A stretch of 64,000 nucleotides of DNA from an uncultured Ignavibacteria bacterium. Its GTDB lineage: Bacteria; Zixibacteria; MSB-5A5; CAIYYT01. Made by a program: the position numbers and the translations under genes. A model generated the notes under the pieces. The model was not told the DNA's origin. It did not search any database and worked only from the letters and a program-made list of their open reading frames with translations. Of the stretch, positions 6,743 through 57,547 are shown one piece after another. Position 1 is the first letter of the stretch, and each line of letters starts with the position of its first letter. The DNA is taken from positions 3,956-67,955 of the forward strand of contig CAZTYE010000013.1 in assembly GCA_964617645.1 (NCBI GenBank). Reading direction: 5' to 3'.

Positions 6743-6748
6743 TCGCCA

Positions 6749-30268: not shown

Positions 30269-30286
30269 TTGTGAAAAAAATCACAA
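30269..30286. promoter_or_regulatory. Rex-type operator (1 mismatch; also fits CRP-type TGTGA-N6-TCACA)
   Basis: TTGTGAAAAAAATCACAA between the promoter and the start codon. Confidence 0.7.
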
Positions 30287-33666: not shown

Positions 33667-33777
33667 GTAAACCAAAATCGGCAGGGGGAAGTGATTCACA
33701 CGATTTTTCGAAATAGCGATTGACAAATCGACGATAGTGACGTCATATTGTTAAGGTCAATCTTGGAGAGGAAAACT

Positions 33778-36015: not shown

Positions 36016-36026
36016 GGGAGGTCACT

Positions 36027-37906: not shown

Positions 37907-38746
37907 GTGATTACACGCATCAAAATCGGGTTGTTGACGCTGCTGGCGGGAATCGCGTTTTACTACTTTGGTCGGGGCTTGCCGGATGGGAGGGCGGATT
38001 TCGAGAAGGGGCATCCGCATGAAGAGGTCAATTGCGAGTTGTGCCACAAGTTCGACGGCAACATGCGCGGCTTTGGCGTGAGCGTGGCGCGCAACGCGAT
38101 GTGCCTGACTTGTCACACGACGGCCAAGCTTCATGATGTCAAACTGCGTTCGTTCCACGCGGCGACGACACCCAATTGCAACGAGTGCCACAGTTTTCAC
38201 GCGCCGAGCCGGGTGATTGCCAACGGCGACACGACGACGATGGCGATCGTGGCTGGCCTCGACGAGATTTGCGCGGACTGTCACAACAATCCGGGTCGGC
38301 CGGTGGTGTCGGTCGGTCATGAGGCGGCGGCGCGATTAATTCACGGATCGCTCGATCCGGCCTGGGTGGCGCAGCCGTCGCAATACTGTATGGCGTGTCA
38401 CGACGCGGACGCCGCACCGCGTGGTGATGCCAATACCGGGCAGGTGACGCCGAGGATCCACACGGTCGGCGGCCACGCGATTGGAATTCCATTGATTCCC
38501 GGCTTTCAGCGGGCGGGTGCGGACAATAAGATCCGCGATCAGATACCCGAGTTCGTCCGTACGATCAACGGAAATATCGAGTGCCTGACCTGCCATTCAC
38601 TGAGTTCGGGCAGCGCGTTCCTGCTGGTGACCGGGCACCAGAACGACTTGTGTAACGGCTGCCACAATGTCGATCCGAACATTCCAGAAACAAGGCCACC
38701 GGTCTTCACTCAGCGTTCAGCGAACGGCGACCGGGTGCGTCCGTAA
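37907..38746 (+). CDS. Multiheme cytochrome c, 7 CxxCH, N-terminal membrane anchor or signal
   Basis: CELCH, CLTCH, CNECH, CADCH, CMACH, CLTCH, CNGCH; the last pair has the doubled-CXXCH pattern. Confidence 0.85.
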   Translation: MITRIKIGLLTLLAGIAFYYFGRGLPDGRADFEKGHPHEEVNCELCHKFDGNMRGFGVSVARNAMCLTCHTTAKLHDVKLRSFHAATTPNCNECHSFHAPSRVIANGDTTTMAIVAGLDEICADCHNNPGRPVVSVGHEAAARLIHGSLDPAWVAQPSQYCMACHDADAAPRGDANTGQVTPRIHTVGGHAIGIPLIPGFQRAGADNKIRDQIPEFVRTINGNIECLTCHSLSSGSAFLLVTGHQNDLCNGCHNVDPNIPETRPPVFTQRSANGDRVRP

Positions 38747-38892
38747 AAACGACCACGATATCGACCTTTTCGATAGATTTTAATGTAGACCTTACTGGTC
38801 GATTCTGCATTTTGTAACCCACTGTCGGGCTGTCAGATAGTTTTCTCAAGATAGTAGACATTAACTTTCTTCAGGGGAATCGAAAATATCCC

Positions 38893-38928
38893 TTGACAAG
38901 CAGACTAATCTTGTTACCTTTTTCACAA
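38893..38928 (+). promoter_or_regulatory. Sigma70 promoter with extended -10 overlapped by a Rex-type operator
   Basis: TTGACA (38893-38898), 16-nt spacer with TG, TACCTT; operator TTGTTACCTTTTTCACAA at 38911-38928. Confidence 0.7.
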
Positions 38929-38969
38929 TCTTAGACGCGCCGCTTAGAGCTATGGCGTTGTGAGGCAAT

Positions 38970-39494
38970 ATGAAACGGATAATGACCGTACTTGTGATAG
39001 GGGCAATCTTCTGGGCGGCTACCGAATCCTTCGCCGGCGAAATTTCCAAAGACAGCACTTTTAGATCCGACACACTGACGGCGCCGCTTCCGGGCTGGAA
39101 AGTCGGAATCGACTCGACCAATATCAAGGATACAACCTCGTTTTTTGTTATCGAGACCCGACACAAGGTTTTCGGGAATTTCCGGCAGGTCGACACGGTC
39201 AGGTTTGGAAGGCAATTCGAGTTGGGTGAAGGCGAAGAAGTGGCGGTGGTGATGGCCTTCAATCCGCACTTGGCGATTTCGACGAAGGGCACGGCGATTG
39301 CGTTTTCGGACACGCTCTGGAATCCGGCGGCGCGAGTGCGCGTTCTCGACAAGAGCGGAAAGGTCATCCAAGAAGGCTGGGCGTTTCACTACACCGACGC
39401 GCCGCACTACCCGCGCAACCACCTGTTTGGATTTCGATTGCTGGCCTACAAAGTAGACTCACAGTTTATCATTCCCCCGGTTGAGAAGAAGTAG
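38970..39494 (+). CDS. Secreted hypothetical protein, possibly ResB-subdomain/DUF2155-like
   Basis: Signal peptide; FNP...NPAARVRV...EGWAF segment recalls a periplasmic region of ResB-type proteins (by memory, not aligned); first gene after the promoter. Confidence 0.55.
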   Translation: MKRIMTVLVIGAIFWAATESFAGEISKDSTFRSDTLTAPLPGWKVGIDSTNIKDTTSFFVIETRHKVFGNFRQVDTVRFGRQFELGEGEEVAVVMAFNPHLAISTKGTAIAFSDTLWNPAARVRVLDKSGKVIQEGWAFHYTDAPHYPRNHLFGFRLLAYKVDSQFIIPPVEKK

Positions 39495-39509
39495 TTATCG
39501 GAGGCCTTC

Positions 39510-42500
39510 GTGCGACACGGACGATGCTTTGGGATCATTGCACACATCATTTTGGGGGTCGGCGCTTTTCTGGCATTTTCATCGTCCGCTCAGGCGGTCA
39601 AGACTTGCTACGATTGCCACCAGAATCTTAAAGCGGCCTTCGAAGCAAAAAAGGTCGTTCACAAGCCGGTAAAGGACAACGACTGCGAGTCGTGTCACAA
39701 ACGTCATGGGTTCGCCAATACTCTAATTCTCGTCGACAATAGTTCGGAACTGTGTTTCACATGCCATGCGGACTTGAAAGAGAAATTCGCGGTTGGGACG
39801 AAGCACGCGCCGATGGAAGTCGGCAAATGCTGGGATTGCCACGAACCGCACGCCGCCGACAAGAAGGGGCTGCTTCGCAATTACGAAGGCGTGATCGACG
39901 ATCCCGGCTCCTGCCTGGCGTGCCACGGCAAGGAACTGGAATCGGCGCTTGACGGAACAGTTCCCCATCCGCCGTTTACGAAACTGGATTGCGCGGCCTG
40001 TCATGATCCACATAACAGCGAGCACGCGGGATTGCTCAAGAAGGACGTCAGTGCGCTTTGCGCCGATTGCCACGATCCGAAGGACAAGAAGACGCTGGCG
40101 GCACATGAAGGCAAAGCGATCGCCGGCTTGGAGTGCGCCGAATGTCACAGCGGCCATTCGACGAACAGCGCGGGGCTGATGTCAGGAAATTCGCATGCGC
40201 CTTTTTCCGAAGGACAATGCGATGTTTGTCATGCGCCGGTGACCGATCCGGCGGCGATTCAGTTCACCGATGGCAAGAAACCGGGAGAACTTTGCGGCGA
40301 ATGCCACAGCGAACAGGTCGACGCAACGGCGTTGGCGATTCCGCATGCCGCGGTGGAGAAGGTCAACTGCGATGCCTGCCACCAGCCGCATTCATCGCGG
40401 CACGGCAAGCTACTGAAGGAAAATCAGGCCAACTTGTGCGGCGAATGCCATGACGATCTTCTGACCGGCGACAAGATGGTTGCGCACGCGCCGGCGATTC
40501 TCGGAGACTGCTCCGGCTGTCATGAAGTTCACGGCTCGAATAAGGAGCATCTGCTCGCCGCAACGGATTCGAGTCTTTGCCTGGGATGCCATGGCGAATT
40601 CGCAGTAAAGCGGGATTCCGCCGAAGTCGTGCATCCCGCGATCGCCGACTGCAATGGTTGTCACGCTCCGCACGAGGGCCACACACAGGCGATCTTGCGC
40701 ACTTCACCGGAAGACGCCTGCCGCAAATGCCATGAACCGTCGGGCGCGGATCGCGCGGCAGAGTCGGTCCACCCGCCGTATCTCAGATCGGATTGCAGCG
40801 CTTGTCATAATTCCCACTTCGGCGACGAGGCGCATCTCGTTAAGGCCGGTGGGAACAAACTTTGCGTCAATTGCCATCCGGAAATCGGGAATCGAACAAC
40901 ATTGGCGGTTCAGCACGCGCCGGCGCAGGAAGATTGCCAAACCTGCCACAGGCCCCACACCGCCGGAAGTGATTTTCTCTTGGCAGCGCCCGAGGGTGAG
41001 TTGTGCGGCCAGTGCCACGACCGGGCCGATTTTAATGGCAACAAGACTTTCGTGCATACGCCGGTACTGAAGGGCGATTGCAGCGGTTGCCACAATCCGC
41101 ACGGCTCGATGAAGGAACATCTGGTCGCCGGTCGTGCGGTGCGGATGTATGTCAACGGGATTCCGATCAGTAAAACACCGGCCCTGGGTGACAAGATCGC
41201 CGACCTTTGCTTCACCTGCCACGATGACCTGAAAGAGAAATTCCGCCAAGGCGTACCGCATACGCCGGTCGAAAGCGGCGATTGCCAGGTATGCCATGAT
41301 CCGCACGGCGGCGATGTCTACGGCATGCTAAAGGACGAGCCGGCCAAGGTTTGCGGGACATGCCATACGATCGACGCGGATTTGGCGACGAAACATGAAA
41401 ACTACGATCTGACGGCCGCGAACTGCCTTGATTGTCACAATCCGCACACGGCTCCGGAAAAGGGACTGATGCGGGCGAACTTGCATCCGCCGTTCGCCGA
41501 AAAGTCTTGTGACGGCTGCCATGAGCGCGGTGCGGACGGCAAGGTTGTCATGGCGGGACCGGAAGCCGAGGTTTGCGGCACTTGTCACGAGGATTTGCTG
41601 GGCCTCGCGAGCAAGAAGTCGCAGCATGGGCCGTTTGCCGCCGGCGAATGCACGGCCTGCCATAGTCCTCATGCGGGCGACGACAAGAAGTTTCTGCTTC
41701 GCGCCGGTAATGATCTGTGCACTAACTGCCACTCCGACATTCATGAACTGGTGAATCAGCCGGTGCAGCACCGCCCGTTTGCGGATGGCGCCTGCGTTGA
41801 CTGCCACGGACCGCATGCGACGGACAATCCGGTATTGACGGTCAAGGCGAAGGAAGGATTCTGCACGAGTTGTCACGAAGACATCAAGAAGGAGCTGGCT
41901 TCCGGCGAAGTCCACGCGCCGACAAAGACCGGCGATTGCACCCAATGCCATCTGCCCCACGCCGGCGCCGCACCAATGCTTCTGGCGAAAGACAAACAAG
42001 CACTCTGCTCGGGATGTCATGATTACACTTCGGTGGCCGTGAAAACAGCGCATGGCGGGTTCGACATTTCCGGCGCCGACTGCCAGAATTGCCATGTCGC
42101 GCACGCCACGAAGCGCGGTGTCAAGGGGCTGCTGCTGCCGAACGCGCACGAGCCGTTCCGCAGCGGCACGTGCGACCAGTGCCACGCCGGGCAAGCGCCT
42201 CTACCGCTGGTTGCCGAGACCAAGGAGTTGTGTCTGACCTGCCACGACGACTTTGCAAAGCAACTTGCGCAGGCCGTGGTGCATGCGCCGATCCTGAGCG
42301 GTGATTGCACCGGTTGTCACGGCCCGCACGTCGGCTTCGGTAAGTCACTTCAGGTTCGCGAAGGATTCAAGGCCTGTGTCACCTGTCACGACTCGCGTGA
42401 GTTTTCCGGCAGCGTCAAACATCCGGTGGCGTTCGAAGATTGCGGCAACTGTCATGATCCGCATGCGGCGCCGAATAAGGGACTTCTAAATACGACGGAT

Positions 42501-42704
42501 ATACAAGGCTTGTGTCTCGGCTGTCATGAAGACGCCAAGAAGTCGCATTTTCATCCGATGGGCGATAGTGTCATTGATCCGCGCACCAAGACGCCGGTGA
42601 ACTGCGTCAGTTGCCACTCGGCACACTCATCCGACTGGCCATCGATGCTGGTTGCCGATAAAAACCGCAAGTTGTGTGTACTGTGCCACGACGTCAGCCA
42701 CTAA
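39510..42704 (+). CDS. Very large periplasmic multiheme cytochrome c, 42 CxxCH
   Basis: Sec signal ending AQA; 42 CxxCH counted, mostly as H.P...CxxCH.PH....LL......CxxCH paired repeats. Confidence 0.93.
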   Translation: MRHGRCFGIIAHIILGVGAFLAFSSSAQAVKTCYDCHQNLKAAFEAKKVVHKPVKDNDCESCHKRHGFANTLILVDNSSELCFTCHADLKEKFAVGTKHAPMEVGKCWDCHEPHAADKKGLLRNYEGVIDDPGSCLACHGKELESALDGTVPHPPFTKLDCAACHDPHNSEHAGLLKKDVSALCADCHDPKDKKTLAAHEGKAIAGLECAECHSGHSTNSAGLMSGNSHAPFSEGQCDVCHAPVTDPAAIQFTDGKKPGELCGECHSEQVDATALAIPHAAVEKVNCDACHQPHSSRHGKLLKENQANLCGECHDDLLTGDKMVAHAPAILGDCSGCHEVHGSNKEHLLAATDSSLCLGCHGEFAVKRDSAEVVHPAIADCNGCHAPHEGHTQAILRTSPEDACRKCHEPSGADRAAESVHPPYLRSDCSACHNSHFGDEAHLVKAGGNKLCVNCHPEIGNRTTLAVQHAPAQEDCQTCHRPHTAGSDFLLAAPEGELCGQCHDRADFNGNKTFVHTPVLKGDCSGCHNPHGSMKEHLVAGRAVRMYVNGIPISKTPALGDKIADLCFTCHDDLKEKFRQGVPHTPVESGDCQVCHDPHGGDVYGMLKDEPAKVCGTCHTIDADLATKHENYDLTAANCLDCHNPHTAPEKGLMRANLHPPFAEKSCDGCHERGADGKVVMAGPEAEVCGTCHEDLLGLASKKSQHGPFAAGECTACHSPHAGDDKKFLLRAGNDLCTNCHSDIHELVNQPVQHRPFADGACVDCHGPHATDNPVLTVKAKEGFCTSCHEDIKKELASGEVHAPTKTGDCTQCHLPHAGAAPMLLAKDKQALCSGCHDYTSVAVKTAHGGFDISGADCQNCHVAHATKRGVKGLLLPNAHEPFRSGTCDQCHAGQAPLPLVAETKELCLTCHDDFAKQLAQAVVHAPILSGDCTGCHGPHVGFGKSLQVREGFKACVTCHDSREFSGSVKHPVAFEDCGNCHDPHAAPNKGLLNTTDIQGLCLGCHEDAKKSHFHPMGDSVIDPRTKTPVNCVSCHSAHSSDWPSMLVADKNRKLCVLCHDVSH

Positions 42705-42723
42705 ATGGACTGAGGGAACTCTG

Positions 42724-43611
42724 ATGATCAGGCACCGACTCTATGCTCCGATTCTTGCCGCGACGATCTTGTTCACTGCCGCATATGCGACGGCGTTGCA
42801 GCTCTACAAGAGCATCAAAGTACTCGACGGTGAGCGGCAATTGGTCAAGCCGACGCAGGTGGTTACGTCGCCCTCCGGCGCCCGCTATGCGGTTGTCGAC
42901 CAGTTTGCCAACCGAATTTATGTCTTCGACATTCCCGATCAACTGGTCTGGGAAGTCGGCACGCTGACGCCGCTGGTGCTGCCGACGTCGGCGTGTTTTG
43001 ACGGCGAAGACGCATTATTGTTCGCGGTGCAAAATCGCAATCAGGTTTATCGAACCCGCAGCGACGAACCGGACAAGTACGACAGCGTAACGACAATCAA
43101 GGACGGCGGAATCCGCAATATCGACGCCATCCGCCGGACGCCGGAGAACCAATATATCGTGCTTGATCGCAAGAATGGACGAGTCGCGCAATTCGATCAC
43201 AAGTGGCGATTCGTGCGCGTAGTCGCCGATCAGGGCCAGGGTCGAGGCAAGCTGTGGGCGCCGGTTGAAGTGGCGGTTTTGCTCGGCGGTGGTTTGGCAA
43301 TTTCGGATGCCGCGAATATGCCGCTGCAGATATTCTCCAGCCAGGGGAAATTCCTCAACTCTGCCGGCTGGAATAATCCGACGCAAGACCGTCAATGGAA
43401 GGGCGGCGCTGTCACGGTGGGATTGGACGAAACGATTTGGGTTGCCGATATGAGTGCGCGCCGGTGGCGGCGTTTCGACCGCGCCGGAGTGGAAGTCAGC
43501 AGTGAGAGCTTCACCCTGCCGCCGATGCATCCGCTGAGCGCGGCATTCACCGCCGATGGCCGGTTAATCGTGGTGGATGAGTTAGGGTCGCTGCACATCT
43601 TCGAACCATAA
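42724..43611 (+). CDS. NHL-repeat beta-propeller protein
   Basis: Signal peptide; repeats PTQVVTSPSG..YAVVD, GKLWAPVEVAV..GG.L.ISD, VTVGLDETIWVAD. Confidence 0.75.
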   Translation: MIRHRLYAPILAATILFTAAYATALQLYKSIKVLDGERQLVKPTQVVTSPSGARYAVVDQFANRIYVFDIPDQLVWEVGTLTPLVLPTSACFDGEDALLFAVQNRNQVYRTRSDEPDKYDSVTTIKDGGIRNIDAIRRTPENQYIVLDRKNGRVAQFDHKWRFVRVVADQGQGRGKLWAPVEVAVLLGGGLAISDAANMPLQIFSSQGKFLNSAGWNNPTQDRQWKGGAVTVGLDETIWVADMSARRWRRFDRAGVEVSSESFTLPPMHPLSAAFTADGRLIVVDELGSLHIFEP

Positions 43612-43625
43612 TTACTGAGGATCTT

Positions 43626-44579
43626 GTGAAACGCATCGCGTCGTTGCTGATCGGAATCACTCTCTGGCCGCTCGTTAACGTGGTCGCGGGCGAATGGCAC
43701 ACCGAGGGCAACCTGCGCTGCGCGGATTGCCATCTATCGCATGCTTCGGGCGAAGAGATCGGCGCCTATGAGGGGCCCTACCTGATCCTGCTCAAGAAAG
43801 ACTCGATCAACGAATTGTGCCTGTCTTGCCACGACGGCAGCGATCTGGCCGCGCCAGATGTGCTGACGCCGGTTGAGATGTACGCCGCGACGAGCGCCGG
43901 CGAGAGCACTGCGGGGCATCTGCAACTTCCCAGCTATGATCACGCTGGCGGGCACAATCTGGGTCTGATCGCGCCGACGCCGCTGCAGTCCGCCGGCAGC
44001 GCCATAGAACTCAGTTGCATCAGTTGTCACGCGGCGCACGGCAATGCCAATTACCGCAATCTGTCGGAAGATCCGGCACGCATCGGCAGCAATCTTTCCG
44101 TTGTTGACGGCATTCAAGTGTTCACCGATCAGAAGCCGTCGCGGCCGCCAAATTCGGTGTCAACGATTGCGGCTTATCAGCGCGACAATGTCGGTTACGT
44201 TTCCGGCCTCGACGAGTGGTGCACATCCTGTCACAATCAGTTGGAGAATAACGCACCGGCTTCAAGTCCTGCGCATTTTGCGGGTCACCCGTCCGGCGTG
44301 GCGCTCAATCAGTTTGTCAGCGAGTATCATGCGGATCCGCAACATTGGATCGGCGGAAGTGGCGAGGGATTTACGCTCGATGGGATTAGCCGGTTGCCGA
44401 TCCTGTCGCCGAGCGCGACGAGTTTCATCGCCGCCCGCACGCCGCAGACATCCGATCGCGTGAGTTGTATCAGTTGCCACCGCGGACACGGCGGCGATCG
44501 GCGAAAGAATCTCCGGTGGCCGGCGGTTGAAGGCGGCGCCACCGCGATGGCCGGATGCCAACAGTGCCATAACAAGTAG
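43626..44579 (+). CDS. OmcS-like hexaheme cytochrome c (paralog 1)
   Basis: 6 CxxCH; mature WHTEGNLRCADCHLSH; GGHNL, YRNL, GLDEWCTSCH and VSCISCHRGH in OmcS order. Confidence 0.75.
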   Translation: MKRIASLLIGITLWPLVNVVAGEWHTEGNLRCADCHLSHASGEEIGAYEGPYLILLKKDSINELCLSCHDGSDLAAPDVLTPVEMYAATSAGESTAGHLQLPSYDHAGGHNLGLIAPTPLQSAGSAIELSCISCHAAHGNANYRNLSEDPARIGSNLSVVDGIQVFTDQKPSRPPNSVSTIAAYQRDNVGYVSGLDEWCTSCHNQLENNAPASSPAHFAGHPSGVALNQFVSEYHADPQHWIGGSGEGFTLDGISRLPILSPSATSFIAARTPQTSDRVSCISCHRGHGGDRRKNLRWPAVEGGATAMAGCQQCHNK

Positions 44580-44586
44580 TGAGCAG

Positions 44587-45681
44587 ATGATGAGTCAGCG
44601 CACAACAGGTGTGAGTTTAGGAGTAGCGTCGCTGTTAATCGCGGGGGCAGCGTTGCTGCTCGCCGATGGCGGCCGGTTCCGCAATTCACCACACGGCTCT
44701 GCCGAAAGCGGCGTGTGGCGAACCGGAGATTATCCTCGCGGAAGCTGCCTGCAATGTCATGGCGCGCACCAAGGAGGCACGCCGGAACCGTTCGGACTAT
44801 TCCAGCCCAATAGCAATGAACTCTGCCTCGGCGCCTCGATGGGCGGCTGCCATGCCGATCAACCGAGCGGTGCGACGGCGGGCTATCCGGCGCAAGAGAC
44901 GGACCGGATGCCGATCGGATCGAGCGACGCCGGTTATTTCGAGTTCAATTCCGGCGGCACACGGATTCCCGGAGTCAGTAATCATGTCCGCTGGCCGGGT
45001 CGTCAGGTTTGGAAGGATCTCGCGTATTCACCGCATAATACCGACCCCGATATGCCGCTTAAGGATTTCTTCGGCGACGGCGACTGCGGAAATTGCCACA
45101 ACATACACGGTGGCGCGGGATCGCACGATTTACTTGATACGACCTACAGCAGCATCGTAGGTTCGCAATTCGGCGCGTGGCCGGACAACTACGAATTGTG
45201 TTTCTCCTGCCACTCGCAATTCGGCCCGGTCGGGATGAACGAAAGCGGCAAACGCATTCGCGACTACTACGACCGCTCGATTAATCCGAGCAACCGCGCG
45301 GGCCATGGTATCGGCGACGGCGGCGGATACGTGCCGTCCGGCGCGCGGCTGTCGTGCTCGGATTGCCACAATCCGCATGGATCGCGTGGGAGTCAAGCAG
45401 GGGGTCCGAACGCGTTCTTGCTCAGCGATCAGCGCCCGGGCTGGCACGGACTCACCGATATTCGCAACGACAACGCTCAGGTTCGCCGATTTTGCTTCGG
45501 TTGCCATGTATCCTCCGATAACCAAGCGGGGGGAACTATCCATGGACTCAATCTGGAGCGGCTTCCCGACGAAGTCGCGGCGCATGAATTCATGGGCACG
45601 ACACATTGCTACGACTGTCACGGACGCGACTATTCGACGTCGAACGGCTTCAATGTTCATAACCCAGCGGAGGGTGAATAA
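44587..45681 (+). CDS. Multiheme cytochrome c, 6 CxxCH plus one CX7CH
   Basis: CLQCH, CLGASMGGCH, CGNCH, CFSCH, CSDCH, CFGCH, CYDCH; hydrophobic N-terminus. Confidence 0.85.
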   Translation: MMSQRTTGVSLGVASLLIAGAALLLADGGRFRNSPHGSAESGVWRTGDYPRGSCLQCHGAHQGGTPEPFGLFQPNSNELCLGASMGGCHADQPSGATAGYPAQETDRMPIGSSDAGYFEFNSGGTRIPGVSNHVRWPGRQVWKDLAYSPHNTDPDMPLKDFFGDGDCGNCHNIHGGAGSHDLLDTTYSSIVGSQFGAWPDNYELCFSCHSQFGPVGMNESGKRIRDYYDRSINPSNRAGHGIGDGGGYVPSGARLSCSDCHNPHGSRGSQAGGPNAFLLSDQRPGWHGLTDIRNDNAQVRRFCFGCHVSSDNQAGGTIHGLNLERLPDEVAAHEFMGTTHCYDCHGRDYSTSNGFNVHNPAEGE

Positions 45682-47381
45682 TGTTGCGGGTCGTATTGGT
45701 GCCGGCGCTTCTGACCATTCTGGCCTGCGACGTTGACGCCGATCGGCTGTACGGGAATCTCAATTTGCTGGGAGAGCACTCGCGACAAGCCGGGGCCGTT
45801 GCTTTCAGCGACAACTCCTCGCAGGCAACGCTCACGCTTAACTACGAAGACGCTCTTTTCGTAAAAAACCGAATGCGGCTCGGACTTCAGGTTTCGCGAC
45901 GCGACTATCCGAATTCGCCGCAGCGGGACCTGAGGCCGATTTTTACGCTCGACCTCAAGAGCTACGGTTATGCACTGAATCTGAGCTACTCCCCGTACCG
46001 GCGGCTGACGACAGACGCGATCGGCGCGAGCACGTACTATTTGTATTCGCGTGATTGGCGCTCCAACCTGGCCCTCAACTACGATCGCTACCCGCCCGTG
46101 AACATCACCTACAACCGGACGCGAAAATTCGACCGCCAGACCCAGCGCCGCTTCGATAGCTCCGGCGAGACGTTTTTGATCGACACCCGCCACGCGGTCG
46201 GTGGCGTTGCGGTGCGCGGGTCTTATGGCCGGGTAACGAGCGAGAATTTTCTGATCGGCGGCTCGAATTCGGTTTCGGAAAACGTCGCGGCGGCAGCGAC
46301 TCTAACCAAGAATTACGACGGCATCGGCTACCTGAACGCGCTCTATTCGTACTATGCCTCGGAGATCGACCGCCGGTCGTTGGCGGTGCGCAATCGCACG
46401 GAGTTTTCGGCGCACACGATCAACGCCCTGTTGTCTTCCGACCGGTTTTATGGACTGACCGCGACGACTACCTATTCCGGGCGCTGGGCGGAGTCACAAA
46501 CGAGCACAATTCGCGCCCAAAACGACAATCACAACGCTACGGCGCAGTTGTCGTTCCTGCCCCTATCGTATTTATCGTTCGATGTCGCGAAATCGTACCA
46601 AACCACCGAAGAAGGCGGCCCGCGGCAAACGGTAGAATTCGTCAGCATCTCCGGCTCCGCATCGCGTTATCTGCGGCAAGGCGTCGACACGCGGTTGGGC
46701 GCCACCCGGACGTTTTTCCAGAAATCAAACAAGTCGCTGGAGAGCGGCGAGGGCGGTTCGGGAGCTTATAATTACGACAACATCTATGCTTCAGTCGGAC
46801 TGACGCCGCTGAATTATGTCCGTACCTATTTCGACGTCTCGGTAGCGCACGATTCAAAGCCGATCTTGAAAACCCAGCGGTATCAGGTCTTTCGTTCTTT
46901 GAATGCGCAGCTTCAACTCAGCCGCCGCATCGAGAGCCGCATCGGCTTTACCGCGGTTTATCAGGGCGCGAACTTGAATTTTGACCAGAGTATCTCGCGA
47001 AACTACAACCTCGGGCTGACGTGGATTCCAACCGGCAATCTTAGCCTGAACGCAAACTACATTCGGACGGAAAGCGCGACCGACATCGCGCTGAGCACCG
47101 ATTCGTGGAACGGCTACGCGTCGTACTCATTCCGGCGCGCTTTCACGCTATTCGTCAACGGCGTTTGGCAGGAACAAAAGACGTCGGCGATATCGCCGGC
47201 GCTGCTACCGTCGGAAGTCAATCGCACTTCGCGGCCGCGGTCGATCAATAGCCAGATTCTGATTTACCTGACGCCGTCAATTACACTCACCGGCGGATAC
47301 TTGTACTCCCTGGTTGAAGTGCTGGGCGGATCGTACACCTTGATCGAGTCCTATCAGTTATCCTTGAATTTTCGGATTTAG
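45681..47381 (+). CDS. Outer-membrane beta-barrel protein (porin of a porin-cytochrome or secretion system)
   Basis: Signal-like N-terminus; alternating amphipathic strands rich in Y/S/T/N; terminal strand SYQLSLNFRI; TAATG coupling to the upstream cytochrome. Confidence 0.7.
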   Translation: MLRVVLVPALLTILACDVDADRLYGNLNLLGEHSRQAGAVAFSDNSSQATLTLNYEDALFVKNRMRLGLQVSRRDYPNSPQRDLRPIFTLDLKSYGYALNLSYSPYRRLTTDAIGASTYYLYSRDWRSNLALNYDRYPPVNITYNRTRKFDRQTQRRFDSSGETFLIDTRHAVGGVAVRGSYGRVTSENFLIGGSNSVSENVAAAATLTKNYDGIGYLNALYSYYASEIDRRSLAVRNRTEFSAHTINALLSSDRFYGLTATTTYSGRWAESQTSTIRAQNDNHNATAQLSFLPLSYLSFDVAKSYQTTEEGGPRQTVEFVSISGSASRYLRQGVDTRLGATRTFFQKSNKSLESGEGGSGAYNYDNIYASVGLTPLNYVRTYFDVSVAHDSKPILKTQRYQVFRSLNAQLQLSRRIESRIGFTAVYQGANLNFDQSISRNYNLGLTWIPTGNLSLNANYIRTESATDIALSTDSWNGYASYSFRRAFTLFVNGVWQEQKTSAISPALLPSEVNRTSRPRSINSQILIYLTPSITLTGGYLYSLVEVLGGSYTLIESYQLSLNFRI

Positions 47382-47396
47382 CAACGGATAAGAGTT

Positions 47397-47981
47397 ATGA
47401 AATCACTGACCCGAATCACACTGCTTTTGACTTTGCTGCCGCTGCTGTCTTGCGGCAGTTATCGGGCGTACACCAATCCCGAAGCCGACTTTGGGTTCTA
47501 CGAGCGCGTCGGTGTCATCCCCTTCGCCAATCTTACCAACGACCGCAATGCGTCGGAGAAGGTGACTTCGGCGTTCGTGATCGAGCTCCTCATCGGGGAC
47601 GCGCTGGAAGTGGCGCCGATGGGCGACGTCTACAAGGCGGCGCGCGCGGTACTTAAAGACGAAAAGACGAATCTGCCCGATCAGTTGACGGGCGAGGAAG
47701 CGCGCGCCCTCGGCGAAGCGGCGCAAGTCCAGGCGCTCTTTGTCGGCGCGGTCCGCGATTACGGCATGGTGCGCTCGGGACAAGAGGAGTTTCCGCTGGT
47801 GTCGGTCAGCGTGCGCTTGATCGACTGCGGCACCGGCAAGGTGGTTTGGACGCACGAAGTGACGCGCAAGGGTGGGCCGAAATTCCCGATCTTCTCGTTC
47901 GGCGAGACGCATACGCTCGGTGACATGACCGCCAAGGTTTGCCGCGAGGTGGCACGAGATTTCCTCGGTAAGGTGCGATAG
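47397..47981 (+). CDS. Lipoprotein, DUF799/GNA1162 (CsgG/PelC/TolB_N-like fold)
   Basis: Lipobox LLS-C; RVGVIPFANLT...ALGEAAQVQALFVGAVRDYG...VSVSVRLID..TGKVVW. Confidence 0.7.
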   Translation: MKSLTRITLLLTLLPLLSCGSYRAYTNPEADFGFYERVGVIPFANLTNDRNASEKVTSAFVIELLIGDALEVAPMGDVYKAARAVLKDEKTNLPDQLTGEEARALGEAAQVQALFVGAVRDYGMVRSGQEEFPLVSVSVRLIDCGTGKVVWTHEVTRKGGPKFPIFSFGETHTLGDMTAKVCREVARDFLGKVR

Positions 47982-47983
47982 CC

Positions 47984-48568
47984 ATGCGTTCGGCGGCGAT
48001 TTTTGTTGTGGTAGCGGTTGTGGCGCTCGCGATGTTGGCCTGCAGCCCGGGAATGGTCAGCAAGCGCTCGGCACGAATCGAGCTGCCGCAGAAGCCCCGC
48101 GTGGCGGTGCTTCCCTTCGAGAATTATTCCGGTGAGGAAGGCGCCGCGACGCGCATTACGGATTACTTCGTTACGCTGATGACGGCCAGCCCGGACTTTG
48201 AACTGATCGAATTCGGCAGTTCATACGAGGCGATGCGCCGACTGCGGATCCGCTCATCGAATTCGATGTCGAGCGAGCAAATCGACAGCCTGGCGGCGAT
48301 TCTGGGCGCCGACGTGCTGTTTTCAGGCACGGTGGTAGAATACAATACTGTCGACAACTCGTATCTCGGCAAAGTCCCGCGCGTGGCGTTCAACGCACGT
48401 GCCCTGGCGACGCGCGAACGGCGCACAGTTTGGTCGGCGGCGGTTAGCGGCCGCGGCGACAAAGGCGAGTTTCTTTTCGGAATTGGCGTAATTCGATCCG
48501 CGGAGAAGCTGTCGGAAAAGCTGGTTGAAGCGGCGGTAAGAGAGTTCGCGGATGAAATTCGCAATTGA
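47984..48568 (+). CDS. Lipoprotein, second DUF799/CsgG/PelC-like paralog
   Basis: Lipobox MLA-C; RVAVLPFENYS...LGADVLFSGTVVEY...VAFNARAL....RTVWSA. Confidence 0.7.
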   Translation: MRSAAIFVVVAVVALAMLACSPGMVSKRSARIELPQKPRVAVLPFENYSGEEGAATRITDYFVTLMTASPDFELIEFGSSYEAMRRLRIRSSNSMSSEQIDSLAAILGADVLFSGTVVEYNTVDNSYLGKVPRVAFNARALATRERRTVWSAAVSGRGDKGEFLFGIGVIRSAEKLSEKLVEAAVREFADEIRN

Positions 48569-49532
48569 TCGCCGGCTGCTACTGCTCGCTATTCTGGTGG
48601 GAGTTACTCTCAGCAGTGTCGCGGTCCTTGCCGAACACCCGGCGCAGCGGATTTCGATAGCCGCGATCGGCGATCAAGACGCCACCGGCAAACAATTGCG
48701 CTCGCCGGTGTCGATTCACTTTGATCGCTACGGCAACGAGGTGTTTGTCGTCGACCCGGGCGGAAAAAAGGTGGTGATCTTCGACCCCGACCTCAACCCC
48801 CGCTTCGAGTTCCAGCATCGGGTGCCGTCGCTTCAGGGCGGACAACTCGAGCCGGGAGAACCCAAGCGTCTCGTGACCAATCGGCACGGCGAGATTCTCC
48901 TGATCGATAATGTCGCGGATTTCATCGACATCCTTGACTTCCGCGGCAGACCCGTTGATCGCATTTATCCCAATCGGCTCCTGGGCGACACGACGCTCAA
49001 AATTCGGGCAGACCTGATCGCTACGGATGAACGGGACAATGTTTATGTATCGATCGACGGAGACCTTCAGGCGGTGCTGGTGCTTGACGGCAATTTGCGG
49101 CTCAAGCGCCGCTTCGGGCAGAAAGGCGACCGGCCGGAAGACTTCAATACAGTAGTTGGGCTTTACGCCAGCGAGGGCAAAATCTACATCGCCGATGTAT
49201 ATGGCGAACCGGCAATTAAGGTCTACGACACCCTCGGTACTTACCTGTTTGGGTTTGCCCGCCATGAGATCGACCCCGGTGATCTTTCGATGGCGCAAGG
49301 CATTGCGGTGCACCGCGACACAGCCGGAATCCAGACGATTTGGGTCACCGATGCTCTGCGGCAAGTCATAAAAGTCTACTCAGACAGTGGAGTTTACATC
49401 GCGACCGTCGGTGGCTTTGGCGAAAAGCCAGGAGAGTTTATGTATCCTTCCGGAATCGCGGTGTCGGAGACCGGCTCGTTCTATATTGTGGAGCGTGGAT
49501 CGGCCCGAATTCAGCGTTTCGACTACCGCTAA
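48552..49532 (+). CDS. NHL-repeat beta-propeller protein
   Basis: LRSPVSIHFD..GNEVFVVD; FGQKGDRPEDF; GGFGEKPGEFMYPSGIAVSETGSFYIVERGSARIQRF. Confidence 0.85.
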   Translation: MKFAIDRRLLLLAILVGVTLSSVAVLAEHPAQRISIAAIGDQDATGKQLRSPVSIHFDRYGNEVFVVDPGGKKVVIFDPDLNPRFEFQHRVPSLQGGQLEPGEPKRLVTNRHGEILLIDNVADFIDILDFRGRPVDRIYPNRLLGDTTLKIRADLIATDERDNVYVSIDGDLQAVLVLDGNLRLKRRFGQKGDRPEDFNTVVGLYASEGKIYIADVYGEPAIKVYDTLGTYLFGFARHEIDPGDLSMAQGIAVHRDTAGIQTIWVTDALRQVIKVYSDSGVYIATVGGFGEKPGEFMYPSGIAVSETGSFYIVERGSARIQRFDYR

Positions 49533-49604
49533 GTTAATGCCACTAACTTACTAAGCATTGCACGAAAATTGACCGCGAAAATCGATTTGGTACGAAGAAT
49601 TTCC

Positions 49605-49640
49605 TTGACAAACAATACGAGATTGCTATCTTTTTCACAA
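49605..49640 (+). promoter_or_regulatory. Sigma70 promoter with extended -10 overlapped by a Rex-type operator
   Basis: TTGACA (49605-49610), 16-nt spacer with TG, TATCTT; operator TTGCTATCTTTTTCACAA at 49623-49640; aligns without gaps to 38891-38930. Confidence 0.7.
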
Positions 49641-49717
49641 ACTTTTGAAGCGCTGAAAGCCTTCATATAAGGAACGAGCCGAATGCACCTGCGAAGAGCC
49701 AAATCGACAAACAGGAT

Positions 49718-49735
49718 TTGTGAAGTTTTTCACAA
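49718..49735. promoter_or_regulatory. Perfect Rex-type operator
   Basis: TTGTGAA-GTTT-TTCACAA. Confidence 0.8.
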
Positions 49736-49952
49736 TCACGACAGTCTTTGGGGACAATCGGCCGAGTTAAAGATCGCCAGAACTCAGCCTCTATTTACAT
49801 CTGATCAAAGTCAAATTAGCTCGAATGAACAATTGATGAAAGGAGTGATGCCAGATCACCGACGCGGATCGCGAGAATCTGCGATCACAAAAGACGGGCT
49901 GAACGTTCACAAGTACTTTCACCTTAATTCAACCACTAAGGTAGGTTCTACA

Positions 49953-51032
49953 ATGAAGAAGCTCACCTTGCTTGCTTTTGCCATGGTGTTCGCGCTTGTT
50001 GTCGCGGCGATGGCGGGCGACTATCATTCCGGCGCGAATCTGAATTGCGCGGAATGTCATGTGATGCACTATAGCCAGACCCATGGCTACAACAGCAATG
50101 GCGGCGGGATCACCGTCGACCTGGGCAACGCAGGCCCGTATCATTACTTGCTGCGCAACGAAATCAACGATCTCTGCCTGACTTGCCACGATGGCCAAAC
50201 ATTCGCGCCGGACGTTTTTGAAGTCGGTACTGGCGCTCCGGCAAACGGCCGTCTCGCCGGCGCTCTGAATCGTGATAACGTTTCGCCGTACTTTGATGCT
50301 ACCGGCCACACCCTCGGCTCGACCGACGATGCCCCGGGTGGCACTTGGGACAATCCGGACGGCCTTAACTGCACGAACTGCCACACCCAGCACGGCCGCG
50401 GCGGCTCGTGGGGTGGCGTGTCGTACAGCCTTTATCGCAATGCGAACATCTTCATCAACGGCACCCCGACAACCCCGCTGATGACCTATGCCATCGGGAC
50501 CAATGATCTCACTCGCGACATCTTTGAGCGTTCGGCGACTTACGGCGGCACGCACTATGACTTGCTGAACGTCGACTACAATGAGCCGGATCCGACGCAG
50601 TCTGGATACGGTCGTTTCTGCGGCCAGTGCCACACCAATTTCCATGGAACCGTTGGTTCCGCGGAGATCGGCGGCACGGGTACGCCGGCCAGCGAATTCC
50701 TGCGTCACCCCACCGCCGGCGCCAATATTGGAGCGCTTGGTGGCGGGCACTCAAGCCTGACCCGCAAGTATGACGACATGCTCTATCGTCTCAAGGTCAT
50801 GAGCCCGACCGGTAACTGGGGAACGTGGGGCGTTGCGTTCGGCGGAACCTCGACGGTCTCCAATGCTCCGACCGATCATACACCGTCTTGCATGACCTGC
50901 CACAAGGCGCACGGCACGACCCGCGCCTTTGGTCTGATCTGGGCCACGGGCACGACTCCGTACGGTGAAAACGGCGACGGCACCCGCTACGATCAGCAGT
51001 GCGGCCAGTGTCACGCGCAGGTCGCCTTCTAA
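49953..51032 (+). CDS. OmcS-like hexaheme cytochrome c, likely the major subunit (paralog 2)
   Basis: ATG at 49953 after AAGGTAGGT; signal peptide; YHSGANLNCAECHVMH; 6 CxxCH; APGG...LNCTNCH..HG, FCGQCHTNFH, RHP and SCMTCHKAHG; own promoter and terminator. Confidence 0.8.
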   Translation: MKKLTLLAFAMVFALVVAAMAGDYHSGANLNCAECHVMHYSQTHGYNSNGGGITVDLGNAGPYHYLLRNEINDLCLTCHDGQTFAPDVFEVGTGAPANGRLAGALNRDNVSPYFDATGHTLGSTDDAPGGTWDNPDGLNCTNCHTQHGRGGSWGGVSYSLYRNANIFINGTPTTPLMTYAIGTNDLTRDIFERSATYGGTHYDLLNVDYNEPDPTQSGYGRFCGQCHTNFHGTVGSAEIGGTGTPASEFLRHPTAGANIGALGGGHSSLTRKYDDMLYRLKVMSPTGNWGTWGVAFGGTSTVSNAPTDHTPSCMTCHKAHGTTRAFGLIWATGTTPYGENGDGTRYDQQCGQCHAQVAF

Positions 51033-51067
51033 TTCAGAAGTCACGCCTGTTCATAGTCTGCAATTGA

Positions 51068-51091
51068 GAAGAGGAGCTTCGGCTCCTCTTC
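51068..51091 (+). terminator. Strong hairpin (terminator or RNA stabiliser) after the major OmcS-like gene
   Basis: GAAGAGGAGC-TTCG-GCTCCTCTTC, 10-bp stem with UUCG loop; the U-tract is weak. Confidence 0.7.
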
Positions 51092-51122
51092 CGTTCTTGC
51101 TAATGCTAATCGGGAGCATTCA

Positions 51123-52250
51123 ATGAAGCCGAATTCTTCAATTACTACTTTCCTCATGTTATTTGCTCTTACCTGCTGCTCAAGCTCATTCGCCTTCGAT
51201 CCCAATGATGCGGCGGCAAACCTTCAGTACATTCATCCCGGAGCGACGATCAAGACGCCCGCGGCGGCATTCAAAGCCACCGGTCAAATGGACGTTCCGA
51301 CATTTCATAGCGGTACGACTCTGTATTGCTCGCAGTGCCATGTCATGCACGCCAGTCAACAACATGCGCATGAAGGCGTGGGCGCAATCGATCCCTTCGG
51401 CCCCTACCCACGCACGTTCGACCCATCGCCGAAGCTGCTCAAAGCTCCGGATCCTGTTGCGCTCTGTTTGACCTGCCATGACAATGTGCCCGGCGTCCCG
51501 GATGTCGTCGGAGCAGACGTCAACGGCCTCGTTGAGCGTTCAGCGGGCTTGTTCGAGCTACCCGGCGAGCCAAACCCCAGAGGACACAAGCTCGACTACG
51601 GTCTTGATACGGATCCGGGGTTTGGTCTTTGCATGAGATGCCATTTTGGAGGAACGTTTGAGGATGCGGCAGTCTCCTGTATCGACTGTCACAATCCACA
51701 CGGAAACGGTCGAGCGAGAAACCTTCAATGGGCGTCATACCCCGGCGGCGAGCCGCAGTTTGGATTGTACAACTCCGTCAATAGCGGTTTGGCCAAGTAC
51801 GAACGCGGCAACGTGGCGTATGGTACAGACAACTCAGATTTGGCACGCGAAGTCACGAACATGTGCAATGACTGCCACCATGTGTTCACCGGTCAGTATT
51901 ACAACGACCCGGACGCGGATGGTATTCACAACCTGCACCCGAGTTACGACTCGGAACGGTCAAATCCGAATAATATAGCGCAGGGCAACTCGGAAGGCAC
52001 GACCAGCAGCCAGCATTGGATCGACGGCACGGGAACCGGCTATCAGGCTACGCCGCGGGTCAACTTCGTCAACTACCCGGCTACCGACTTCGCATCGGCG
52101 TCGACCGTGAATGCCGGCAGCAACGGAGTATTCTGCCTATCGTGTCACAAGGCTCACGGCGGGACAAGCTCGTTTGCTTTGCTATGGGATCCTGTTGGCA
52201 GTTTTAATGGAGAAGGATGCGATCAGTGCCATCTCAAGATGGGCGAATGA
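51123..52250 (+). CDS. OmcS-like cytochrome c with N-terminal extension and a seventh CxxCH (paralog 3)
   Basis: Signal peptide, ~35-aa extension, then FHSGTTLYCSQCHVMH; CSQCH, CLTCH, CMRCH, CIDCH, CNDCH, CLSCH, CDQCH. Confidence 0.75.
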   Translation: MKPNSSITTFLMLFALTCCSSSFAFDPNDAAANLQYIHPGATIKTPAAAFKATGQMDVPTFHSGTTLYCSQCHVMHASQQHAHEGVGAIDPFGPYPRTFDPSPKLLKAPDPVALCLTCHDNVPGVPDVVGADVNGLVERSAGLFELPGEPNPRGHKLDYGLDTDPGFGLCMRCHFGGTFEDAAVSCIDCHNPHGNGRARNLQWASYPGGEPQFGLYNSVNSGLAKYERGNVAYGTDNSDLAREVTNMCNDCHHVFTGQYYNDPDADGIHNLHPSYDSERSNPNNIAQGNSEGTTSSQHWIDGTGTGYQATPRVNFVNYPATDFASASTVNAGSNGVFCLSCHKAHGGTSSFALLWDPVGSFNGEGCDQCHLKMGE

Positions 52251-52292: not shown

Positions 52293-52718
52293 CTAAGCCA
52301 GAAGCGTGCTGATAATTCCTTCGACTTGACCGGCAAGTAGTTTCCACGACATCTTCGTGTAGATGCAACTGAAGGTGTAACCGCGACCATTGAGGATCAG
52401 ATAGGTAAATTGATTGAAGGTGATCGATTCATCGGCGGCAACAGACTTGTAGACCCACTCCCAGGCGCGGACACCGCTGGGCAGGGTCTTCACCTCGTTC
52501 TTTAGTGTCTCGACCATACCCATGGGGCTGGCGGTCGTAAGCTGGATGCGCTGCCGGGCGAATGATTCGAGGGTTTCCCCGGTGGCGACCGCCGGATCGA
52601 TCACCAGCCGCAGCATGTGCTTGATACCGTGCGATTCGGGTCCGGAGTAGACAAAGATCGATTGGTCGCTCCAACCGGCGGGGAGACTAAGTCGAAATTG
52701 ATGATTGTTCGAACTCAT
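52293..52718 (-). CDS. DcrB/DUF1795-like (PsbP-fold) protein
   Basis: FRLSLPAGWSDQSIFVY...LESFARQRI...GRGYTFSC pattern; last gene of the PAAR cassette. Confidence 0.65.
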   Translation of the reverse strand: MSSNNHQFRLSLPAGWSDQSIFVYSGPESHGIKHMLRLVIDPAVATGETLESFARQRIQLTTASPMGMVETLKNEVKTLPSGVRAWEWVYKSVAADESITFNQFTYLILNGRGYTFSCIYTKMSWKLLAGQVEGIISTLLA

Positions 52719-52737
52719 ATTCGTGTCCTCTCATCCG

Positions 52738-53955: not shown

Positions 53956-54002
53956 GATTGACCACGAGAGTCCTTTCCGTTTCGGCGTCCATCATCTCCG
54001 GC

Positions 54003-57536: not shown

Positions 57537-57547
57537 GGATCAGCATC

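Follow-up and report, generated by a model that had tools for sequence, protein, structure and literature searches.

We have analysed a cluster of multihaem cytochrome genes located at positions 37907-52250 on the + strand of a 64-kb window, the window being the whole stretch of DNA under study. Twelve genes are present in this region, all in the same orientation, of which six encode c-type cytochromes (cytA to cytF) and six encode other proteins: a small secreted protein, two NHL-type beta-propellers (NHL1 and NHL2), an outer-membrane barrel and two lipoproteins (lipo1 and lipo2). The locus is probably a Fibrobacteres-Chlorobi-Bacteroidetes (FCB) superphylum version, Zixibacteria/Ignavibacteria-like, of the osc-type extracellular electron transfer cluster, osc being the Geobacter gene set linked to OmcS nanowires. 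In gene order, the open reading frame (ORF) translations of the cytochromes contain 7, 42, 6, 6, 6 and 7 CxxCH motifs, and this recount of 74 motifs in six co-oriented multihaem cytochromes reproduces the total given in a first-pass annotation of the same DNA. CxxCH does not occur in the remaining ORFs of the window (0 in 17,645 amino acids, aa), and the Cys and His frequencies of those ORFs predict that 0.007 motifs would arise by chance over the combined length of the six cytochromes (2,868 aa).

CxxxCH, CxxxxCH and CxxCK motifs were absent from the translated cluster ORFs. A catalytic multihaem reductase is ruled out by the absence of CxxCK together with database matches that are sub-threshold and confined to motifs. 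The related explanation, that the cytochromes are periplasmic respiratory enzymes resembling nitrite or sulfite reductases with the barrel and lipoproteins as unrelated neighbours, is highly improbable. It derives from weak, sub-threshold matches to octahaem and pentahaem nitrite reductases and to NrfB/NrfH models; however, the nitrite reductase-type matches fall far under the curated cut-offs and cover single motifs only, neither CxxCK nor any other catalytic-haem motif is present, and the barrel, lipoprotein and NHL genes are translationally packed with the cytochrome genes and co-occur with them across phyla.

The nine genes between 38970 and 49532 form one operon, because the intergenic gaps are only -17 to +16 nucleotides (nt). 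cytA is positioned 223 nt 5' of this main operon, and a 420-nt AT-rich gap separates the operon from cytE, for which an alternative ORF start exists at 49683, the true start being given as 49953. The cytD ORF likewise has two potential starts, at 44527 or 44587, and cytF is preceded by a hairpin. The same gene set is found in a 98%-identical strain, contig L082 (run SRR16938233; loci fetched for comparison are designated L and a number). Differences between the window and L082 are mostly synonymous, with 79 nt and 25 aa changes in the 42-haem gene, cytB, and 3 nt and 0 aa changes in the small secreted protein gene, indicating that the cluster genes are under purifying selection. The G+C content of the window is 53-61%.

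OmcS-family cytochromes

As judged from sequence, cytC, cytE and cytF belong to the OmcS family. cytC (43626-44579, +) is a compact hexahaem cytochrome of ~294 aa in its mature form, encoded directly 5' of cytD and the barrel gene; cytE (49953-51032, +) is a hexahaem cytochrome encoded in a separate transcription unit; and cytF (51123-52250, +) contains 7 CxxCH motifs and an N-terminal extension of ~40 aa. The three proteins are full-length paralogs (blastp 1e-23 to 1e-28) whose families align pairwise with hhalign E = 1e-49 to 1e-65 over 280-336 columns. As a single sequence, cytC matches OmcS (6EF8) at E = 8e-6 (phmmer against PDB); single-sequence PDB searches with cytD, cytE and cytF gave no match. 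Family profiles searched against PDB matched OmcS for all three, the cytC family (A1, 42 sequences) at E = 1.8e-13 in three collinear stretches from residue 1, the cytE family (A3) at E = 1.6e-17 in a single stretch covering OmcS 1-346 and the cytF family (A4) at E = 1.6e-10 over OmcS 1-353. OmcE (7TFS) is the second PDB match of the cytC and cytF profiles, with E = 2.6e-5 and 8e-7, respectively. Pfam and NCBIfam contained no model for the OmcS family. Significant OmcS similarity, implied for the cluster by the first-pass annotation, is therefore present in three of the six cytochromes.

The haem ligands were compared by rebuilding OmcS residues 1-353 from HMMER alignments and aligning them with 124 OmcS-like proteins. 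The columns of the OmcS motifs C9, C47, C140, C239 and C328 are at least 98% conserved and the motifs are kept in cytC, cytE and cytF, as are the non-motif His residues H2, H16, H110, H147, H257 and H335, whose columns are conserved to the same degree. The sixth haem motif is situated at the extreme C-terminus of all three window proteins. On the evidence of this alignment, the six motif and six distal His constitute the requirement for bis-His ligation of six haems. In 2019, Wang et al. reportedly found that, within the filament, H16 of one OmcS subunit serves as a ligand to haem 5 of the next. A description of the cross-subunit His of the OmcS filament is also given in PMC12307469.

The likeness to OmcS (GSU2504; 6EF8/6NEF) and its paralogs OmcT, OmcJ and GSU2501/OscC extends to six CxxCH motifs arranged in the same order, to a mature N-terminus beginning just ahead of a conserved His (F1-H2 in OmcS, E-W-H or D-Y-H in the window proteins), to the CxxCHxxH signature containing the His16 equivalent and to a structure that is mostly coil. 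In contrast, the window proteins are only ~23-27% identical to OmcS and are shorter, with ~294-340 mature residues as compared with 407, and cytF differs further in its seventh haem and N-terminal extension. The likeness to OmcE is confined to the N-terminal two-haem region, OmcE being a tetrahaem protein of another length. Among the fetched loci, the nearest relatives of OmcS itself (35-36% over 353 residues) were encoded by Abyssubacteria-type metagenome-assembled genomes (MAGs), at L002:7597-8751 (Abyssubacteria), L028:6908-8032 and L035:7544-8695, and not by the Geobacteraceae MAG.

In a neighbour-joining tree, calculated without support values, cytC falls in a clade of genes located directly 5' of cytD-like genes, including genes at the same position in Geobacteraceae L039 (9956-11128) and Nitrospiraceae L029. 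OmcS clusters elsewhere, together with peripheral paralogs; cytE is placed closer to that part of the tree, and cytF constitutes a clade by itself. The extra haem motif of cytF is located at C170, and LTCC at the end of its signal peptide is a possible, non-canonical lipobox; cytF may be a surface-anchored variant. Homologs of cytF are encoded in GN15, Zixibacteria, Spirochaetota, Nitrospinota and Poribacteria loci. If one subunit is abundant outside the cell, and possibly polymerises, cytE is the foremost candidate, because its family scores best against OmcS, because the gene has its own conserved promoter-like site, long leader and terminator-like hairpin and because the architecture of that site recurs ahead of the main operon.

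Outer-membrane components

The barrel gene (45681-47381, +) encodes a 566-aa outer-membrane protein with a lipobox-like N-terminus (ILAC). Its AlphaFold2 (AF2) model, with a mean predicted local distance difference test score (pLDDT) of 88.6 and a predicted template modelling score (pTM) of 0.73, consists of 28 antiparallel strands, lacks a plug domain and has loops of at most 14 aa. The model supports the initial designation of this protein as an outer-membrane beta-barrel. As modelled, an open barrel of such size would have to hold some filling component, and we propose that it is the channel or sheath of the system. Pfam, NCBIfam and PDB sequence searches gave no match to the barrel, and only 33 cluster representatives among 1.84 billion were related to it at E <= 1e-3. 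It is nevertheless homologous to proteins of ~600 aa that occupy the equivalent place in loci of Nitrospirota, Deltaproteobacteria, Armatimonadota and Geobacteraceae, a cross-phylum homology detected by hhalign at 99.7% (E = 3e-25, 509 columns).

Immediately downstream, lipo1 (47397-47981, +; lipobox LLSC, Cys19) and lipo2 (47984-48568, +; lipobox MLAC, Cys20) each encode a PelC-like outer-membrane lipoprotein of 194 aa. The two are paralogs (blastp E = 1e-13, hhalign E = 1.5e-47). Their family profile matches four PelC structures at E = 4e-11 (9h80_C) to 1e-8 over ~125-160 residues, GNA1162 at E = 8e-7 and, weakly, LpoB, and the Pfam LpoB, CsgG and GNA1162 models match 12-20 of the 38 lipoprotein family members. 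With a lipobox Cys, PelC similarity and CsgG matches, the CsgG/PelC-like label originally attached to both proteins was right. PelC forms a ring under an outer-membrane porin, and its PDB entries (9H80, 5T10, 5T11, 5T0Z) hold 4 to 12 chains. It resembles lipo1 and lipo2 in being a small outer-membrane lipoprotein with the same domain; however, the window encodes two paralogs and lacks the remaining pel genes, their large barrel partner has no PelB-like tetratricopeptide repeat region and the cargo would be a haem protein rather than a polysaccharide.

The gene preceding the barrel, cytD (44587-45681, +), overlaps the barrel gene start by 1 nt and encodes a 6-haem cytochrome of a separate family whose members in other phyla carry 9-12 haems. 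The cytD profile gave weak local PDB matches to 9yuq_N, 6r2q_A (E = 7e-5) and OmcE. A fourth OmcS paralog was considered and is ruled out, since cytD shares only ~35 haem-motif columns with the OmcS-like families (hhalign) and its profile did not match OmcS in PDB. cytD is a candidate barrel partner. Besides CxxCH, a C80-x7-C88-H89 arrangement is invariant in all 21 members of the cytD family (alignment A5), and this C-x7-CH could be an unusual long-spacer haem attachment site.

Foldseek comparison of the barrel model with PDB identified MtrB (6r2q_B) as the top match (E = 4.4e-12, query template modelling score (TMq) 0.54); the next matches, with E-values at least 300 times weaker, were TonB receptors, LptD and the FimD usher. 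MtrB, the nearest structure to the model, is the sheath of a cytochrome conduit and not a secretion channel. This raises the possibility that the cluster encodes a porin-cytochrome conduit without a filament, with the barrel as a sheath around cytD or part of cytB, in the way that MtrB encloses MtrA. The OmcS-like proteins would then dock onto the barrel at the cell surface, as monomers or oligomers, like MtrC, and the lipoproteins would serve as a plug or stabiliser comparable to LptE in LptD. Such a conduit, the main rival reading, is a real possibility, if on balance a doubtful one. It is consistent with the absence of a plug and the short loops of the barrel, which call for some filling, with the overlap between cytD and the barrel start codon and with the order OmcS-like gene, cytD, barrel gene, which mirrors mtrC-mtrA-mtrB. 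The cytD and cytF profiles also match, weakly and locally, 6r2q_A, a chain that is labelled differently by the depositor but that we regard as MtrA. MtrCAB (Shewanella, 6R2Q) carries electrons across the outer membrane, which is also the function that we propose for the cluster in the window.

Against a conduit of this type, a peptide-minimised MtrA-like decahaem cytochrome was not found beside the barrel, cytD having 6 haems at ~60 aa per haem, and the similarity between cytD and MtrA is at motif level only. The barrel has no Pfam match of the MtrB/PioB type and no sequence-level relation to MtrB, large barrels resemble each other, and a template modelling (TM) score of 0.54 is modest. The loss of nanowires in Geobacter osc mutants, reported in a passage of PMC13194489 that cites Shen 2025, also argues against a conduit. 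Compared with the Mtr complex, the barrel of the window has 28 predicted strands where MtrB has 26, and the PelC-like lipoproteins and NHL propellers are without Mtr counterparts. In favour of a conduit, the cluster may have served another function before nanowires arose (PMC12977616). The conduit and filament readings are not mutually exclusive and can be combined as a conduit doubling as a wire socket.

Conservation of the gene module

A search of the protein collection with the cytC family gave 290 relatives (E <= 1e-3); among the best 120 of these, those with a name are labelled Zixibacteria, FCB group or Abyssubacteria. A lineage scan using one genome per species detected cytC relatives in Zixibacteria, Ignavibacteriales, GN15, Planctomycetota, Nitrospirota, Thermodesulfovibrionia, Acidobacteriota/Thermoanaerobaculia, Anaeromyxobacter, Geobacteraceae, Armatimonadota, Spirochaetota, Nitrospinota, Poribacteria, Eisenbacteria, Verrucomicrobiota, Calditrichota, Krumholzibacteriia and Alphaproteobacteria. 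A module consisting of an OmcS-like gene, a cytD-like gene, a barrel gene and two genes for PelC-like lipoproteins, usually accompanied by an NHL gene and a 42- or 26-haem cytochrome gene, is present in roughly 15 phylum-level lineages and, in the fetched loci, recurs in most lineages whose contigs are long enough. The packed order cytC, cytD, barrel, lipo1, lipo2, NHL2 is matched in Zixibacteria CP070756, Nitrospiraceae L029 and Deltaproteobacteria L024, and the complete Zixibacteria chromosome CP070756 has the gene order of the window, including a 1064-aa 42-haem protein.

The module is also present in a Geobacteraceae MAG, L039, which encodes an OmcS-like protein 31% identical to cytC, a second OmcS-like protein, NHL proteins, a cytD-like protein with 9 haems, a 607-aa barrel homolog and lipoproteins that are 39% (the lipo1 homolog) and 26-28% identical to those of the window. 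A 152-aa ORF and the gene for a 952-aa NHL protein are inserted between its cytC-like and cytD-like genes. The accessory genes proposed earlier to correspond to a Geobacter cluster do so in this respect, the barrel and lipoproteins of the window being homologous to those beside an OmcS-like gene in the Geobacteraceae MAG. The surprise initially attached to finding such a locus in this lineage is weakened, as the module extends to ~15 phylum-level lineages and the osc cluster has been published as widespread and ancient.

Other cytochromes and secreted proteins

The first gene of the cluster, cytA (37907-38746, +), encodes a protein with 7 CxxCH motifs and a hydrophobic N-terminal segment, which from its sequence is probably a membrane anchor or signal peptide. 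cytA matches the Pfam models Paired_CXXCH_1, Cytochrome_C7 and c3, and its likeness to OmcS-like proteins is at haem-motif level only, over ~35 columns. Homologs occupy the same upstream position in FCB loci, and cytA is a candidate electron entry point from the inner membrane or periplasm.

The largest protein, cytB (39510-42704, +), is a 42-haem periplasmic cytochrome of 1064 aa, with ~25 aa per haem, a CxxCH spacing of ~23-28 aa and 20 Pfam Paired_CXXCH_1 repeats (E = 1e-190). We propose that it relays or stores electrons in the periplasm. More than 25 loci from at least 6 phyla encode full-length homologs in which the haem number is exactly 42, with 26-haem forms in others, and cytB is 31-34% identical over ~650 aa to the 26-haem versions in loci of the same type. 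Among the 42-haem forms, exactly 42 CxxCH motifs and a length of ~1040-1070 aa are kept at only 33-37% identity from Zixibacteria to Nitrospirota, Deltaproteobacteria, Thermoanaerobaculia and Eisenbacteria, examples being L011:5814-9008, L029:15442-18576, L024:15714-18839 and L059:16098-19247. The fixed number of 42 haems may point to a constraint on length, such as the distance that the protein has to bridge.

Both NHL genes encode secreted NHL-type beta-propellers. NHL1 (42721-43611, +), whose position is conserved in FCB loci, gave weak matches to the Pfam NHL and DUF5128 models, and NHL2 (48552-49532, +), which closes the packed operon, matched NHL at E = 1.4e-8 in addition to DUF5128. The two families are homologous (hhalign 99.9%), and NHL2 homologs occur in most related loci, Geobacteraceae L039 included. 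The identification of two NHL propellers in the first-pass annotation is therefore borne out, with Pfam matches that are weak but present. The operon begins with the gene for the small secreted protein (38970-39494, +; 174 aa), which has a signal peptide and no family match in Pfam or NCBIfam, in agreement with its initial description as an unknown secreted protein. In Zixibacteria, Ignavibacteria and GN15 loci, homologs with 40-53% identity directly precede the gene for the 42-haem cytochrome, a position conserved in other FCB loci.

Promoters, leader and regulation

Two promoter-like sites of similar architecture were identified. The first (38893-38929, +) precedes the main operon and consists of CTTGACA-N16-TACCTT followed by TTTCACAA. 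The second (49605-49640, +) precedes cytE and consists of TTGACA-N16-TATCTT with TG, again followed by TTTCACAA; it is the best sigma-70-type match of the region, at 10 of 12 positions. The CTTTTTCACAA motif has 6 matches in the window as compared with 0.7 expected. TTGACA and TAT..TT..CA are invariant in 11 FCB cytE leaders, and CTTGACA-N16-TAYCTT-TTTCACAA is located 5' of both the operon and cytE equivalents in L004, L006, L010 and L017, two sites in each. This common promoter architecture of the main operon and cytE, in the window and four other genomes, argues for co-regulation. The sequences suggest a dedicated co-regulated transcript pair, possibly under control of a TTTCACAA-binding factor. 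One site of the same architecture was observed in each of L009, L013, L016, L027 and L082, and the genomes in which it occurs span Zixibacteria, Ignavibacteria and GN15.

The cytE leader is long, ~370-510 nt being kept in 12 FCB loci, and contains a perfect CRP-type palindrome, TGTGA-N6-TCACA (49719-49734, +), a candidate regulator site kept in 8 of 11 aligned cytE leaders. CRP-type sites with at most 1 mismatch number 6 in the window versus 1.2 expected. A second perfect TGTGA-N6-TCACA is present at 30270-30285, just 5' of a gene for a 4Fe-4S protein with a twin-arginine translocation (Tat) signal (30320-31228). By their sequence, the palindromes may mark a CRP/FNR-family regulon linking respiratory genes. 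Rfam detected no known RNA in the window or the cytE leader, so that a riboswitch of a described family is not present at this leader. A terminator-like hairpin follows cytE (51068-51091, +), with a 10-bp stem containing 6 G-C pairs and a weak T tail.

Host lineage and neighbouring genes

The cluster proteins have no relative above 54-67% identity in species-representative genomes, and their nearest relatives are found about equally in Zixibacteria, Ignavibacteriales, GN15 and 'FCB group' MAGs, the best relatives of each protein being 45-65% identical. An LVIVD-repeat protein encoded in the window (33748-36015) carries a type IX secretion system (T9SS) C-terminal sorting domain, and proteins matching this tail are encoded in Zixibacteria, Krumholzibacteriia and Eisenbacteria loci, in support of an origin in the FCB superphylum. 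A TonB-dependent receptor containing a CarboxypepD_reg domain is encoded in the window as well. T9SS sorting domains and CarboxypepD_reg TonB receptors are typical of the FCB superphylum. The nearest relatives, the T9SS-tailed protein and the receptor agree with the initial view of a non-Geobacter, FCB-like genome, and Geobacterales is excluded for practical purposes.

Directly 5' of the cluster, a subtilisin-like S8 peptidase with a dockerin-like tail (35907-37696) is split into two overlapping frames, the window being one base short at 37110 relative to L082, which represents a frameshift or assembly error. No homolog of this peptidase was found among the other fetched loci. Maturation of OmcZ in Geobacter requires a serine protease, OzpA (PMC12307469). 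On the minus strand, 52293-58660 contains four genes in a row, encoding a small DcrB-like protein (52293-52718), a 405-aa lipoprotein (52738-53955), a 1177-aa protein with a weak OmpA-like match and a HEIGH metallopeptidase-like motif (54003-57536) and a PAAR-domain protein (57548-58660); from their sequences, these look like a PAAR-associated effector cassette. At 1283-9073, a gene for a bacterial alpha-2-macroglobulin (1819 aa) adjoins one for a PBP1C-type penicillin-binding protein (PBP), a classic pairing. RodA, PBP2, PBP1C and alpha-2-macroglobulin are ordinary chromosomal genes in the window.

Discussion

The constant unit in Geobacter is an OmcS-like hexahaem gene, GSU2501, together with the eight-gene block GSU2500-2493, in which GSU2495 encodes OscI, a large multihaem cytochrome with 26 haems; omcS itself is often absent (PMC12977616). 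A passage in PMC13194489, citing Shen et al. 2025, gives the proposed functions of the osc products, OscH folding, OscE/F/G secreting and OscD shaping OmcS nanowires, and the machinery is termed 'widespread and ancient' in the title of that study (Shen et al. 2025, Cell Chem Biol 32:239, as cited in PMC13194489 and PMC12977616). Large beta-barrels are also found in most OmcS/OmcE regions, with propeller lipoproteins nearby, and one proposal is that wires are assembled while mounted on a porin (bioRxiv 10.1101/2025.10.22.684050). In the same study, the OmcE cluster comprises two multihaem cytochromes, two beta-propeller lipoproteins, the subunit and a large beta-barrel, a likeness to the window that includes the subunit, propellers, large barrel and extra cytochromes.

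As judged from its gene content, the window fits this picture, with cytC as the probable GSU2501-type core, the barrel and lipoproteins as a putative channel-like set for which GSU2499-2497 are candidate counterparts, cytB as a counterpart or analog of GSU2495 and cytE and cytF as extra OmcS-family paralogs. A hexahaem gene, a candidate channel-like set, NHL or other propellers and a very large cytochrome are common to the window and the osc cluster, GSU2504-GSU2493. The two differ in gene order, as the 42-haem gene and one NHL gene are upstream in the window and the additional OmcS-like genes are transcribed separately, downstream of the block. They differ further in that the large cytochrome contains 42 rather than 26 haems, the window adds a small secreted protein and an anchored cytochrome with 7 haems, a peptidyl-prolyl isomerase (PPIase) domain is lacking and the host is an FCB-superphylum bacterium.

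In addition to the MtrB-like fold of the barrel, several observations weigh against an osc-type, OmcS-forming system. A rotamase/PPIase domain was not detected in any of the twelve cluster proteins, nor in eight scanned L039 proteins, the 952-aa NHL protein included. OscH is reported to carry a prolyl isomerase domain. The relevant passage of PMC13194489 states only a role for OscH in folding. The putative one-to-one mapping to OscD-K is, furthermore, based on gene position, the Geobacteraceae MAG and the reported features of the osc products. From the tree, cytC is probably a member of the GSU2501/OscC type and is not grouped with OmcS. The OmcS-type label of the first-pass annotation holds for family membership of three cytochromes and is weakened for the one embedded in the machinery; such paralog assignments do not carry over between genera (PMC12977616). 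Conservation of the distal His does not, by analogy, discriminate wire formers, since Geobacter paralogs with the same His are not known as wires, OmcS alone being known to polymerise (PMC12977616). Finally, the haem-free AF2 model of cytC was poor (pLDDT 60.9, pTM 0.62), and its top Foldseek match in PDB, although OmcS, reached only E = 9e-3 and TM 0.22.

We nevertheless consider an osc-type extracellular electron transfer cluster the probable identity of the locus, and propose the following mechanism. All twelve proteins would be exported by the Sec system, as suggested by their N-termini, and haem would be attached in the periplasm by a maturation system encoded elsewhere. Electrons would enter via the membrane-proximal 7-haem cytA and the 42-haem cytB. 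The unplugged 28-strand barrel, the two PelC-like lipoproteins and probably cytD, all of which are encoded in the operon, would assemble into an outer-membrane station, with the NHL propellers as putative periplasmic chaperones or scaffolds, and the OmcS-family cytochromes would reach the cell surface by way of this station or be mounted on it. cytE is most likely the abundant surface subunit and, given its conserved residues, may polymerise head-to-tail in the manner of OmcS, its His16 equivalent ligating haem 5 of the next subunit. More generally, filament formation by cytC, cytE or cytF may occur, to the extent that this can be judged from sequence.

The direction of electron flow, mineral reduction versus uptake, is not readable from the sequence, and no feature of the window fixes it. 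Multihaem bis-His chains conduct both ways. An electron uptake system, drawing on Fe(II) oxidation, minerals or partner cells instead of exporting electrons, would agree with both of these points and with the description of Zixibacteria MAGs as candidates for both iron oxidation and iron reduction (PMC8478452), FeGenie-type surveys having flagged Zixibacteria as possible iron cyclers (PMC8478452, PMC7005843). We consider uptake distinctly unlikely, as the window contains no Cyc2, MtoA/PioA-type marker or downstream oxidase context, and OmcS-family proteins have been characterised only in Geobacter reduction.

A more novel possibility is that the core, consisting of the OscC-type cytochrome, cytD, the barrel and the PelC-like pair, is a trans-outer-membrane electrical socket, a porin-cytochrome conduit on which the separately transcribed cytE polymerises as an FCB wire. 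We put this forward tentatively, since it is on present evidence rather unlikely. If true, the wire would be mounted and charged at one complex, rather than emerging from a secretion channel, and the FCB superphylum would have its first cytochrome nanowire, a compact OmcS-type filament with subunits of ~300 residues in uncultured Zixibacteria/Ignavibacteria-like bacteria. A literature search found no paper characterising a wire in Zixibacteria. The MtrB-like unplugged barrel and PelC-like lipoproteins provide a concrete structural hypothesis for the debated mounting of wires at the outer membrane.

The locus is a new example of a published, widespread system and not a categorically new type, and it leaves the published picture of widespread machinery unchanged. 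Its OmcS-like subunits are about a quarter shorter than OmcS, and short subunits, machinery encoded in one operon and two transcripts with a common conserved promoter make the system tractable for heterologous reconstitution and suited to asking whether the core or a peripheral paralog is the wire former. If the cluster functions as proposed for its Geobacter relatives, uncultured FCB bacteria, which are frequent in sediments and the subsurface, could be wired to minerals or partner cells, and such wiring, if true, would bear on models of iron and carbon cycling.

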